Assembly: GCF_965641715.1 (NCBI RefSeq)
Contig: NZ_OZ282453.1
Source: Escherichia coli
GTDB lineage: Bacteria > Pseudomonadota > Gammaproteobacteria > Enterobacterales > Enterobacteriaceae
Direction: 5' to 3' (one strand)
Length of the DNA: 64,000 nucleotides
Part shown: positions 17,864 to 31,737 of the stretch, piece after piece
Position numbering within the stretch: position 1 is the stretch's first letter
Layout: each line of letters opens with the position of its first letter
Notes under the pieces: generated by a model
Database searches by the model: none
What the model saw: the letters and a program-made list of their open reading frames with translations, nothing else
Told to the model about the DNA's origin: nothing
Made by a program: the position numbers and the translations under genes

Positions 17864-18967
17864 ATGAACATAAAGGGTAAAGCGTTACTGGCAGGATGTA
17901 TCGCGCTGGCATTCAGCAATATGGCTCTGGCAGAAGATATTAAAGTCGCGGTCGTGGGCGCAATGTCCGGTCCGGTTGCGCAGTACGGTGACCAGGAGTT
18001 TACCGGCGCAGAGCAGGCGGTTGCGGATATCAACGCTAAAGGCGGCATTAAAGGCAACAAACTGCAAATCGTAAAATATGACGATGCCTGTGACCCGAAA
18101 CAGGCGGTTGCGGTGGCGAACAAAGTCGTTAACGACGGCATTAAATATGTGATTGGTCACCTCTGTTCTTCATCAACGCAGCCTGCGTCTGACATCTACG
18201 AAGACGAAGGCATTTTAATGATCACCCCAGCGGCAACCGCGCCGGAGCTGACCGCCCGTGGCTATCAGCTGATCCTGCGCACCACCGGCCTGGACTCCGA
18301 CCAGGGGCCGACGGCGGCGAAATATATTCTTGAGAAAGTGAAACCGCAGCGTATTGCTATCGTTCACGACAAACAGCAATACGGCGAAGGTCTGGCGCGA
18401 GCGGTGCAGGACGGCCTGAAGAAAGGCAATGCTAACGTGGTGTTCTTTGATGGTATCACCGCCGGGGAAAAAGATTTCTCAACGCTGGTGGCGCGTCTGA
18501 AAAAAGAGAATATCGACTTCGTTTACTACGGCGGTTATCACCCGGAAATGGGGCAAATCCTGCGTCAGGCACGCGCGGCAGGGCTGAAAACTCAGTTTAT
18601 GGGGCCGGAAGGTGTGGCTAACGTTTCGCTGTCTAACATTGCGGGCGAATCAGCGGAAGGGCTGCTGGTGACCAAGCCGAAGAACTACGATCAGGTTCCG
18701 GCGAACAAACCCATTGTTGACGCGATCAAAGCGAAAAAACAGGACCCAAGTGGCGCGTTCGTCTGGACCACCTACGCCGCGCTGCAATCTTTGCAGGCGG
18801 GCCTGAATCAGTCTGACGATCCGGCTGAGATCGCCAAATACCTGAAAGCGAACTCGGTTGATACCGTGATGGGTTCGCTGACGTGGGATGAGAAAGGTGA
18901 TCTGAAAGGCTTTGAGTTCGGTGTGTTTGACTGGCACGCCAACGGCACGGCGACCGATGCGAAGTAA
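17864..18967 (+). CDS. livJ: Leu/Ile/Val periplasmic binding protein
   Basis: ORF 17807..18967; start [23 protein letters not shown] (signal peptide). Confidence 0.95.
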
Positions 18968-18985
18968 CGGATAGATAAATGAAAA

Positions 18986-19019
18986 TGCCCGATGCGCTTA
19001 ACGTCCATCGGGTTTTTTT
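18986..19019 (+). terminator. Rho-independent terminator of livJ
   Basis: Hairpin gcccgatgcgcttaacgtccatcgggt plus T-run. Confidence 0.7.
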
Positions 19020-19116
19020 ATGTTTGTCGAAATGGTTGTAGAAAGATTAAACAATCCAGGATATGCTTATTGTACGGTGATGTGCCGTACATATTATACG
19101 GAGCAGGAGAGTTCAC

Positions 19117-19383
19117 ATGTCTGCTGTTAAAAAGCAGCGTATCGATCTGCGTTTAACTGACGATGACAAAAGTATGATTGAGGAAGCGGCAGCGATATCT
19201 AATCAGTCCGTCAGCCAATTTATGTTGAACAGCGCTTCGCAGCGGGCTGCGGAAGTGATTGAACAGCATCGGCGGGTGATCCTCAATGAGGAATCCTGGA
19301 CGCGGGTGATGGATGCGCTGAGTAATCCACCGTCACCAGGTGAAAAGCTAAAACGTGCGGTAAAACGTCTTCAGGGAATGTAA
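19117..19383 (+). CDS. ataR: DUF1778-type antitoxin of a GNAT toxin-antitoxin pair (88 aa)
   Basis: Small protein immediately upstream (6-bp gap) of a GNAT gene; symbol assigned from memory of the O157:H7 AtaR-AtaT locus. Confidence 0.7.
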   Translation: MSAVKKQRIDLRLTDDDKSMIEEAAAISNQSVSQFMLNSASQRAAEVIEQHRRVILNEESWTRVMDALSNPPSPGEKLKRAVKRLQGM

Positions 19384-19389
19384 TAATTT

Positions 19390-19917
19390 ATGGATGATCT
19401 GACGATAGAGATTCTGACCGATGATGCAGATTATGATCTACAGCGATTCGACTGCGGCGAGGAAGCGTTAAATCTCTTTCTGACGACACATCTCGTTCGT
19501 CAACATCGCAACAAAATTCTGCGAGCGTATATCCTTTGTCGCAACACTCCAGAACGTCAGGTGCTGGGATATTACACATTATCCGGCAGTTGTTTTGAAC
19601 GAGCCGCATTGCCCTCGAAATCGAAACAGAAAAAAATTCCCTACAAAAATATTCCCAGCGTCACTCTTGGGCGTCTGGCAATTGATCGTTCATTACAGGG
19701 GCAGGGATGGGGAGCAACACTGGTTGCTCATGCCATGAAAGTCGTCTGGTCAGCCTCTTTAGCGGTAGGTATTCACGGTCTTTTTGTCGAGGCGCTGAAT
19801 GAAAAAGCCCATACGTTTTATAAATCGCTGGGCTTTATCCCTTTAGTCGGGGAAAACGAAAATGCGTTATTTTTCCCAACCAAATCCATTGAACTGCTTT
19901 TTACACAGAGCGATTAA
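19390..19917 (+). CDS. ataT: GNAT-family tRNA-acetylating toxin (175 aa)
   Basis: GNAT acetyl-CoA motif region (QGQGWGATLV); paired with upstream antitoxin-like gene. Confidence 0.7.
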   Translation: MDDLTIEILTDDADYDLQRFDCGEEALNLFLTTHLVRQHRNKILRAYILCRNTPERQVLGYYTLSGSCFERAALPSKSKQKKIPYKNIPSVTLGRLAIDRSLQGQGWGATLVAHAMKVVWSASLAVGIHGLFVEALNEKAHTFYKSLGFIPLVGENENALFFPTKSIELLFTQSD

Positions 19918-20297
19918 CGCTTCTCCCAGCCGCCCTGTTGTGCCGTAAATCCCAGTGCCTGCATAAACGCCGTCATCACACCGCGATCTTCCACGCCTGC
20001 ATCCGCCATCCACCAGCATGAAACGCCAGGATTGTTACGCAAAACCTCTTCCAGCAGATATTGCCCCACACCGCGACGTCGAGTGACTTCCCGCACGCGC
20101 AGGGAATCCAGTGCCCCCTCGGTGCCGCTTAAGGTTACCCGCACGGCAGCAAGCAGGCGCTCGTTAAAACGCGCGGCGTAGATACGGTGGTTATCGTCAA
20201 CCTGTAACGAGGAAGGGGAATACTCCGGCCAGATCTTTTGCAGGTCAATCCGGTCCTGGTCGCTAAATTTTTCTAATCGAATGATGGTCAGCTTCAT
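19914..20297 (-). CDS. panM: PanD maturation factor (GNAT fold)
   Basis: 127 aa, same length as K-12 PanZ/PanM; synteny between livJ and livK. Confidence 0.85.
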   Translation of the reverse strand: MKLTIIRLEKFSDQDRIDLQKIWPEYSPSSLQVDDNHRIYAARFNERLLAAVRVTLSGTEGALDSLRVREVTRRRGVGQYLLEEVLRNNPGVSCWWMADAGVEDRGVMTAFMQALGFTAQQGGWEKR

Positions 20298-20720
20298 GGG
20301 TAACCCGTGTAAATCACAAAAGTGGAACCAGTGTAGCGAAATAATTTAATCGGAGGCTTTCTCTTTTTTATTTCTTTTGGCAGGTGATTAATTTTTTAAC
20401 AGCAATAATTACAAAGTTAAAACATTAGAGAATGAAAAATGTCCAGCATAATCCCCTGAATGGTAGTGAATTATTCCGCCCTTTGTGCCGTTATTTTATG
20501 CTGACAAAGGCACCTTTTTCTGTTTATCTATCAATAAATTCAGAATATTATCTGTTCTTAATCGACTGAAAAATAGGGATTTTAATCGCTATTATCACAA
20601 AATACTGCGCTAAACCCTTAATCAAACAGGCAAAAACAGTGCAGTATAAAAAAAGAACAGTCTGATTTGTTAACACATAAGAACAAAGCAACACAACATC
20701 ACGAATGGGGATTTTTGACT

Positions 20721-25675: not shown

Positions 25676-26422
25676 ATGCATTATGCCGTTGTTGTCATGC
25701 TTGAACTGCTTTGCTGTATTCACGCTTACCGTACCGGACAAGAGCGGTACTGGATTTTTATCATTTTCTGTTTTCCGGTGATTGGCTGCGTGGCGTATTT
25801 CGTCATAGTGATGCTGCCTGAAACGGGCGCTGACCGTCACGGGCATACTTTGCTGATGCGCCTGCAGAACAAACTCAACCCTGAGCGCCACCTGCGCAAA
25901 TTAACCGAAGAACTGGCGATTGCCGAGACGAATCAAAACCATTATGCGTTGGCTAATGAACTGGCGCGTCTGGGGCGTTATCACGAAGCTGTTCCCCATT
26001 ATCAGCAGGCGTTAAGCGGGATATTCGCCCATGAAGCGGCAATGATGCTAAGCCTGGCGCAGGCACAGTTTGCTATTCAGGAGTTCGCCGCCTGTCAGCA
26101 GACGCTGGAAGATGTGATGCGTTATAACCCTGATTTTCAGTCGGCAGACGGGCATTTGTTATTTGCCAGAACGTTAGCCGCACAAGAAAAATACGCTGAT
26201 GCGGAAAGCGAGTTTGAAGTATTGATTTCTTATTACCCCGGCCCGCAGGCGCGTATTTACTATGCGGAAATGTTGGCGAAAATGAGTCGGTTACGTGAAG
26301 CCAACGAGCAGTATGTTGCCGTGGTTGATACGGCTAAACGCTCAAGACCTCATTATAGAAAACACCACCGGGAATGGATTAAGACCGCCAATGAACGGCT
26401 GAAGCAGAGTGTGGTGCAATGA
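25676..26422 (+). CDS. Hypothetical membrane-anchored protein with TPR-like helical domain (248 aa)
   Basis: ORF track; two N-terminal hydrophobic segments then helical repeat-like region; lies in an intergenic space that I recall as much shorter in K-12. Confidence 0.45.
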   Translation: MHYAVVVMLELLCCIHAYRTGQERYWIFIIFCFPVIGCVAYFVIVMLPETGADRHGHTLLMRLQNKLNPERHLRKLTEELAIAETNQNHYALANELARLGRYHEAVPHYQQALSGIFAHEAAMMLSLAQAQFAIQEFAACQQTLEDVMRYNPDFQSADGHLLFARTLAAQEKYADAESEFEVLISYYPGPQARIYYAEMLAKMSRLREANEQYVAVVDTAKRSRPHYRKHHREWIKTANERLKQSVVQ

Positions 26423-30997: not shown

Positions 30998-31737
30998 GTA
31001 ACTGGCCTTATCCCCGCATCGTCGCACATCGTGGCGGCGGTAAGCTGGCCCCGGAAAACACCCTGGCGGCAATCGACGTCGGGGCAAAATACGGTCATAA
31101 GATGATCGAATTTGACGCGAAGTTATCGAAAGATGGCGAGATCTTTCTGCTCCATGACGACAATCTCGAACGTACCAGCAACGGCTGGGGCGTCGCGGGT
31201 GAACTGAACTGGCAGGATTTACTACGTGTGGATGCAGGCAGTTGGTACGGCAAAGCGTTTAAAGGTGAGCCGCTGCCGTTGCTTTCGCAGGTGGCGGAAC
31301 GCTGTCGCGAACATGGGATGATGGCGAATATCGAAATCAAACCCACCACTGGCACTGGGCCATTAACGGGCAAAATGGTGGCGCTGGCGGCACGCGAGCT
31401 GTGGGCCGGTATGACGCCGCCGCTACTGTCATCGTTTGAGATTGATGCTTTAGAAGCCGCACAACGGGCAGTACCAGAACTGCCGCGCGGTTTGTTGCTG
31501 GATGAGTGGCGCGACGACTGGCGAGAACTGACCGCGCGGCTGGGCTGCGTCTCTATTCATCTCAATCATAAGTTGCTCGATAAAGCGCGAGTGATGCAGT
31601 TGAAAGACGCCGGATTACGGATTCTGGTTTATACCGTCAATAAACCCCAGCGCGCGGCAGAGTTGCTGCGCTGGGGCGTGGATTGCATCTGTACCGATGC
31701 GATTGATGTGATTGGTCCGAACTTTACGGCCCAATAG
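30994..31737 (+). CDS. ugpQ: Glycerophosphodiester phosphodiesterase
   Basis: 247 aa; GDPD-family N-terminus (HRGG). Confidence 0.95.

Follow-up and report, generated by a model that had tools for sequence, protein, structure and literature searches.

ataRT and panM overlap at their stop codons across enterobacterial genera, with candidate transcript ends inside the opposite gene

The closest described relative of the toxin–antitoxin pair analyzed here is AtaR–AtaT of E. coli O157:H7 (ECs4308-ECs4307, also Z4833-Z4832), whose proteins show no difference from ours and which has the same gene names and the same locus. Toxicity of a near-identical AtaT protein is attributed to acetylation of aminoacyl-tRNA and is neutralized by the antitoxin (PMC7595197, PMC7470980). 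In EHEC, a ΔataT mutant made by kan replacement is reported to have a virulence defect, and the text of that study mentions no complementation (PMC7957018). KacAT of Klebsiella pneumoniae belongs to the same family (69% identity), has the same operon order and is also convergent with its downstream gene; however, it is located elsewhere, in the order cusRS–kacAT–roxA, and a spacer of 47 nt with a GC-rich hairpin follows it. Convergent arrangements are well documented in E. coli MG1655, where 165 convergent transcript overlaps were identified, 146 of them with a terminator inside the neighbor's transcription unit; relBE–ydfV is a type II toxin–antitoxin module in such a convergent excludon (ExcludonFinder, PMC12288877). 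Finally, in S. Typhi a 3.5-kb transcript, ArpH, that starts upstream of yhhK/panM runs antisense through livJ and rpoH (PMC5963218). AtaRT and PanM are textbook genes, and their geometry belongs to a well-known class, overlapping convergent pairs with embedded terminators. Our literature search found no paper treating ataRT together with yhhK, panZ, panM or livJ, and the conserved tail-to-tail link between ataRT and panM therefore appears undiscussed.

The locus lies in a 64,000-nt stretch of E. coli DNA, which we refer to as the window. The antitoxin gene ataR (19117..19383, + strand) encodes an 88-aa RHH protein (Pfam PF08681, TacA1, 1.3e-25; named ataR in RefSeq), and ataT (19390..19917, + strand, 175 aa) follows directly downstream in the same operon after a gap of 6 nt. 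The product of ataT has GNAT Pfam matches, is identical to AtaT in PDB 6GTS at 174 of 175 residues over its full length and matches KacT with E = 2e-74. On the opposite strand, panM (also panZ or yhhK; 19914..20297, − strand) encodes the 127-aa PanD maturation/regulatory factor, with a match to Pfam PanZ (PF12568) at 1.5e-57 over residues 2-125 and to PanZ in PDB 4CRY at 9e-83. Based on these matches, we consider the identification of the open reading frames as AtaRT, a type II toxin–antitoxin of the GNAT–RHH kind, and PanM/PanZ to be secure. We rejected an origin of panM by inverted duplication of the toxin gene, as AtaT and PanM have no specific similarity (BLASTP E = 8).

Positions 19910-19919 read GCGATTAACG on the + strand. 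The TAA stop codon of ataT occupies 19915-19917 and the TAA stop codon of panM is the complement of TTA at 19914-19916, such that the two have 2 bases in common and both are held within TTAA (19914..19917), a 4-nt overlap of the reading frames. The initial annotation had described this overlap, and the sequence and the list of open reading frames confirm its coordinates exactly. The same 4-nt overlap is annotated by RefSeq/PGAP in other E. coli genomes, and solved structures of AtaT and PanM fix both protein ends; a reassigned stop codon that separates the genes is not plausible. Because the intergenic space is zero, transcripts of each gene must enter the other, as had been proposed; since the reading frames overlap, the transcripts must do so to some extent. 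In a single genome this geometry is unremarkable. Within its first ~43 kb, the window has seven convergent gene pairs, taken from the RefSeq annotation of a mostly collinear strain (with small indels) and then checked in the window itself, and four of the seven abut or overlap: yhhS/dcrB (6619/6623, 3-nt gap), yhhM/yhhL (12268/12271, 2-nt gap), ataT/panM (19914-19917, −4) and ugpQ/yhhA (31724-31737, −14). What exceeds chance is the conservation of the ataT/panM overlap across genera.

E. albertii and E. whittamii share this junction. A peptide-pattern scan of genome contigs for AtaT, with patterns that demand near-identity, returned three Escherichia loci, and more distant orthologues were found by protein search and exact-sequence look-ups. 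All six further lineages that could be traced to contigs have the order livJ–antitoxin–toxin–panM, and five of them have the 4-nt overlap between toxin gene and panM. The overlapping tetranucleotide is TTAA in L016/L017 and L025, CTAA in Pluralibacter and CTAG in Salmonella enterica subsp. salamae and L018/L019, and thus conforms to the palindrome YTAR, of which the fourth possible form, TTAG, was not encountered; changes at the two variable positions affect neither gene, since they convert one stop codon to another or are synonymous in the final arginine codon of panM. In the sixth lineage, L024, a 3-nt spacer replaces the exact overlap and PanM is one residue longer; L024 has also lost the hairpin that is described below.

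The divergence of these loci fits long co-inheritance. The livJ–toxin–antitoxin–panM region has ~70% nucleotide identity in S. salamae, Pluralibacter and other enterobacterial lineages, and the orthologous panM-linked toxins are 172 aa long, with ~76% protein identity to AtaT in the family alignment and 72-74% in the comparison given below. The Escherichia toxin ends in …LFTQSD rather than …LFD or …LFG, which reflects a 9-nt in-frame insertion, and its C-terminal length is inside the range of the family. When proteins of the window were compared with those of the other lineages, identity was 72-74% for AtaT, 80-83% for AtaR, 77-84% for PanM, 93-94% for LivJ and 89-92% for LivK; the toxin–antitoxin pair thus shows no less divergence than its neighbors. 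S. enterica subsp. enterica retains a decayed copy that consists of a truncated antitoxin gene and the first ~53 toxin codons, followed by an internal deletion and the last 15 codons, …HALFYPTKSFEQLFA and the stop, whose TAA still interlocks with the panM TAA in TTAA. Citrobacter koseri and Enterobacter hormaechei have no toxin–antitoxin genes here and have REP-like hairpins directly after panM. Occurrence across genera and the fossil in subsp. enterica argue that the overlap is ancestral, and the simplest reading of the taxa is an ancestral ataRT that would have been repeatedly lost or replaced.

We compared the junction with E. coli strains that lack ataRT. Of 5426 complete E. coli genomes, 5424 matched the locus, and in 1612 of these (~30%) ataRT lies between livJ and panM. 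The other ~70% have a 187-198 bp REP/BIME spacer instead, which in some genomes harbors IS621 or IS1397. On the left, alignment with the empty alleles L002/L003 places the breakpoint at 18967|18968, directly after the TAA of livJ (livJ, 17864..18967, + strand, annotated by RefSeq at identical coordinates in L033; stop at 18965-18967). On the right, the breakpoint is at 19910|19911: ataRT-bearing and REP/BIME alleles have CGATTAA (19911..19917) in common, and the ataRT-less alleles are identical again from 19911 onward, a position 3 nt beyond the panM stop codon. All 29 ataRT-less matches listed, sampled down the ranking, start at query position 46, which is 19911. The last codon of ataT, GAT, and its stop codon fall within the common CGATTAA. 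The difference between alleles therefore stops beside the panM stop codon, and the initial annotation, which had placed a cassette junction exactly at the panM 3′ end, was right about the position to within 3 nt. The insertion that it implied did not hold up, because the arrangement is kept across genera.

Several of these observations are what would be expected if a mobile ataRT cassette had inserted at the end of panM, with TTAA as an insertion scar and ataT borrowing the panM stop region. The operon is present in only ~30% of E. coli, both breakpoints coincide with stop codons of the flanking genes, and the end of ataT is built from sequence common to the empty alleles. Furthermore, ataRT differs by 2-3% among Escherichia species and panM by 6-9%, and related toxins occupy other loci (KacT, an Enterobacter copy and a phage-like Citrobacter copy). 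However, at least five further lineages have the same locus, order and 4-nt overlap with a toxin as diverged as its flanks, the toxin C-terminus is of normal length for the family, and even the decayed subsp. enterica copy still overlaps panM. We found no flanking or terminal repeats, integrase, transposase or target duplication at the ataRT locus. The REP/BIME sequences and REP-targeting insertion sequences in the empty alleles fit secondary replacement; a search for ataRT remnants in the E. coli REP/BIME allele found none beyond CGATTAA, and its sole match was REP-like, to the spacer of another lineage. Insertion of a mobile cassette at this site is thus very improbable. Its recent form is largely refuted, as the hallmarks are absent and the locus is orthologous across genera, with the subsp. 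enterica fossil as the strongest evidence against it. The “empty” REP/BIME alleles of E. coli more likely represent losses or replacements than unoccupied sites.

The initial annotation had further stated that the overlap leaves no room for terminators. This is correct for intergenic ones, but not for sites inside the genes: a hairpin followed by a T-tract lies within ataT on the panM strand (19796-19836), and an extreme C-over-G tract lies 3′ of the ataT stop codon. The hairpin (19796..19836, − strand) is antisense to ataT codons 137-149, ~80-115 nt past the panM stop codon, and is a candidate intrinsic terminator of panM. Its stem is formed by AAAGCCCA (19836-19829) and TGGGCTTT (19811-19804), after which comes TTTTTCATT; in the lenient scan for hairpins with T-runs the overall sequence is AAAGCCCA…TGGGCTTTTTCATT. 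The stem of 8-9 bp precedes UUUUUCAUU on the panM strand, and the loop of 15-17 nt is longer than in canonical intrinsic terminators. The predicted folding energy is −17.1 kcal/mol (z = −3.2). A strict consensus scan for promoters and terminators found no terminator between 18800 and 20700, and the lenient scan is permissive: over 1.5 kb it returned ~7 separate sites on each strand. Rfam gave no meaningful match.

Conservation sets this site apart from the rest of ataT. The hairpin is present in six of the seven panM-linked lineages in the form AAAGCCCAG…CTGGGCTTTTTC(A/G)TT, with L024 as the exception, and the − strand T-run, which derives from GAA AAA, is kept in five of seven. Across five lineages, 104 residues of the toxin are invariant and 18 of these are encoded by invariant codons; within codons 138-149, 7 of 8 invariant residues have identical codons (hypergeometric P = 1.1e-5 against 18/104 gene-wide, and ~1e-3 once corrected for the position of the window of codons). 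When six overlapping lineages were compared, the result held (6/7 in codons 138-149 and 13/98 gene-wide), and with L024 included it weakened to P = 0.0018. The invariant codons of the cluster, GAA AAA GCC … TTT … CTG GGC TTT, correspond to the stem arms and the T-run, and the arms encode conserved residues (K-A … L-G-F) with common codons. Invariance is raised from codon 138 of ataT onward (11/23 versus 7/81 upstream, P = 8e-5), is marginal from codon 150 onward, outside the hairpin (4/15 versus 7/81, P = 0.066), and is raised again in panM from codon 98 onward (7/18 versus 5/58, P = 0.005). A covariation test of the hairpin found one compensatory change, no better than in shuffled alignments, and gives it no support because the stem is nearly invariant. 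We infer that the 19796-19836 hairpin most likely ends panM transcripts.

As a palindrome, the hairpin forms on either strand, and it could instead act on the sense strand, in the stability, processing or translation rate of the toxin mRNA. In that case panM transcripts would read through ataRT as far as the livJ terminator, or Rho would end them. Unlinked toxin paralogues have spacers of 35-51 nt with ordinary GC-rich intergenic hairpins, and one of them, L020, has a comparable, partly compensated hairpin (AAG:CTT for CAG:CTG) in the toxin gene in addition to its own intergenic terminator; a hairpin of this kind could therefore serve the toxin mRNA. Read-through from panM might also be halted beyond ataRT. 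A hairpin with 16-nt arms and a T7 run follows livJ (inverted repeat I1, 18979..19021, + strand), resembles an intrinsic terminator and is confined to the ataRT-bearing allele; the lenient scan detected it on both strands (dG −12 to −17), and the strict scan missed it because its loop is 11 nt. On the − strand the hairpin is followed by ATTTTCATTT and could for this reason stop transcripts on the panM strand as well, such that the livJ terminator looks bidirectional. A role confined to the sense strand is nevertheless unlikely. It does not account for the maintenance of the − strand T-run in five of the seven panM-linked lineages, and the embedded hairpin is absent from two unlinked paralogues with spacers of 47-51 nt, L022 (Enterobacter) and KacT, the latter at the codons equivalent to those of ataT. 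In addition, the lone lineage without the exact overlap, L024, is also the one without the hairpin.

On the other side of the junction, RNA from ataRT is untranslated beyond the TAA and would then pass through a C-rich, G-poor tract (19918..20017, + strand) that begins directly after the ataT stop codon and is antisense to panM codons 94-127. Its 100 nt contain 44 C and 18 G, and the resulting skew, (C−G)/L = 0.26, ranks at the 99.98th percentile when every 100-nt window of the 64 kb, from both strands, is considered. The ratio of C to G in this tract is 2.0-2.3 in five other lineages. It thus has the composition expected of Rho-dependent terminators (untranslated, C-rich and G-poor over ≥~80 nt), a criterion of composition alone, and may serve as a rut-like Rho loading region, either for ataRT or for livJ read-through. 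The tract need not have evolved for ataRT, since it is part of the panM coding sequence and ataRT-less alleles carry it unchanged. The lenient scan found no + strand hairpin followed by a T-run from 19869 to 20400; synonymous invariance is raised in the last 30 panM codons, and no conserved + strand hairpin for ataRT termination was found inside panM.

Our preferred explanation, to which as a whole we assign a probability of roughly 0.55, is that ataRT and panM are an old, vertically inherited tail-to-tail pair with transcript ends embedded in each other. Several genera would have retained the arrangement, and many lineages, among them ~70% of E. coli, would have lost it through deletion or replacement. 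With no intergenic DNA, the transcript ends are expected to sit inside the opposite coding sequences. Transcripts of panM would stop at the hairpin and U-tract antisense to ataT codons 137-149, leaving a 3′ UTR of ~110 nt complementary to ataT codons 138-175. The ataRT RNA would cross the 100 nt with the strongest C-over-G bias in the window and probably be ended by Rho-dependent termination within the antisense of the 3′ third of panM. On this account, the geometry would be explicable without regulatory coupling.

The forced overlap also raises the possibility, noted in the initial annotation, of antisense interference between ataRT and panM. The pair could be a functional convergent excludon in which the transcripts anneal or the polymerases collide, such that derepression of ataRT lowers PanM or read-through from panM lowers toxin mRNA. 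This would link a toxin that consumes acetyl-CoA to a regulator of pantothenate synthesis that senses acetyl-CoA/CoA. The locus resembles the excludons of PMC12288877 in its minimal spacing and in that the terminator of one gene is probably in the transcription unit of the other, with relBE–ydfV as a toxin–antitoxin precedent. It differs from them in that even the coding sequences share bases, and its candidate terminator falls in the neighbor's open reading frame rather than a UTR. Were panM to end at the hairpin, the transcripts would overlap by at least ~110 nt; the arrangement is kept across genera, and both ataT and panM show raised synonymous constraint next to the junction. ArpH continues past the panM stop codon antisense to the neighboring genes, and a relative therefore does have read-through on the panM strand; however, the subsp. 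enterica contigs that we examined, S. Typhi itself not among them, have lost the toxin segment that bears the hairpin. Other observations make regulatory coupling distinctly unlikely. Many lineages have lost ataRT or let it decay with no visible change in panM, which argues against an essential role. Moreover, tight convergent pairs with no known coupling are common nearby, AtaT and PanM have no specific sequence relationship, and the constraint on ataT beyond the hairpin is marginal (P = 0.066). The most far-reaching version, which we regard as quite improbable, is that ataRT–panM is a selectively maintained convergent unit with a fixed antisense overlap of ~100-200 nt that couples the toxin to CoA synthesis. 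Such a unit would be bounded by the terminator embedded in ataT and the Rho site embedded in panM, and CoA biosynthesis would be tuned when the toxin operon is derepressed, or the influence would run the other way.

The ataT–panM overlap is ordinary in kind, and its evolutionary and practical aspects are modestly interesting. The cross-genus overlap, the Salmonella fossil and the signal at synonymous sites seem to add new detail to a kind of feature that is already known. As an old syntenic resident between livJ and panM that many lineages would have lost, ataRT bears on the mobility and persistence of toxin–antitoxin modules. In practice, ΔataT and ΔataRT alleles would remove the probable terminator and 3′ UTR of panM, or drive transcription from the marker into panM; the virulence defect of the EHEC ΔataT mutant could accordingly be, in part, a polar effect on PanM and CoA metabolism. 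A nucleic-acid signal that appears to constrain synonymous sites within a toxin gene is also a clean example that is open to synonymous mutagenesis.

Upstream of ataR, a second inverted repeat (I2, 19071..19091, + strand) forms the perfect palindrome TGTACGG-N7-CCGTACA, which is kept in E. albertii, E. whittamii and S. salamae. RHH antitoxins are autoregulated and, by analogy, this palindrome in the promoter region is presumed to be the operator for AtaR or AtaRT.

Comparison of the 18968-19116 region of the window with the Escherichia loci L004-L006 revealed that ataR and ataT diverge by just 2-3% between Escherichia species. In the same comparison, panM differed by 6-9% and the spacer between livJ, the gene upstream of ataR, and ataR by 3-9%. 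The low divergence of the antitoxin and toxin genes could reflect stronger constraint or more recent exchange of the toxin-antitoxin genes between species.

Protein searches and the family alignment identified three AtaT variants of 170 amino acids (P0003, P0007, and P0008, from E. ruysiae, E. marmotae, and Escherichia spp.) that are 93-94% identical to AtaT in the search and 96-97% in the alignment. All three lack 5 internal residues, KKIPY (81-85), within a stretch that is otherwise conserved; these toxins may be attenuated or inactive. We also found a paralogue with 67% identity to AtaT on a Citrobacter freundii complex contig (L020/L021:2224-3022). Its surroundings are phage- or plasmid-like, with a ParA-like gene and tail-fibre genes adjoining. 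In this paralogue, too, the codons that hold the ataT hairpin contain a hairpin, with a compensated pair (AAG:CTT).

A decayed ataRT-like module adjoins panM in Salmonella enterica subsp. enterica (L026/L027:2381-2930). The antitoxin is truncated, with a 54-aa TacA1 ORF called, and the toxin has retained its 5' end and suffered an internal deletion of approximately codons 54-157. The last 15 toxin codons are intact, and the toxin still ends on the panM stop. The gene beyond this module is not livJ; it encodes a 764-aa protein without a Pfam hit.

On the plus strand, positions 19918-20017, which are antisense to the ~33 final codons of panM, have a C-over-G skew that tops all 100-nt windows in the 64 kb, placing the tract at the 99.98th percentile of these windows. 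The tract is kept in other genera and in alleles that lack ataRT. Among the latter, the livJ–panM REP/BIME spacer is interrupted by IS621 in one E. coli genome and by IS1397 in another (L007:4765-5745 and L008:4476-5824, in E. coli E110019 and EC-1639). REP/BIME sequences are targets of both of these insertion sequences.

The spacer between livF and ugpB is a second variable spot of the liv–ugp region. It spans ~1.2 kb in the window, compared to ~0.4 kb in E110019 and EC-1639, and contains a plus-strand ORF (25676-26422) for a TPR-repeat protein of 248 amino acids. PapM-32-1 has an additional small hypothetical gene in this spacer. Finally, besides ataT/panM, the first ~43 kb of the window contain three further convergent pairs that abut or overlap: yhhS/dcrB (6619/6623, a gap of 3 nt), yhhM/yhhL (12268/12271, a gap of 2 nt), and ugpQ/yhhA, which overlap by 14 nt (31724-31737).
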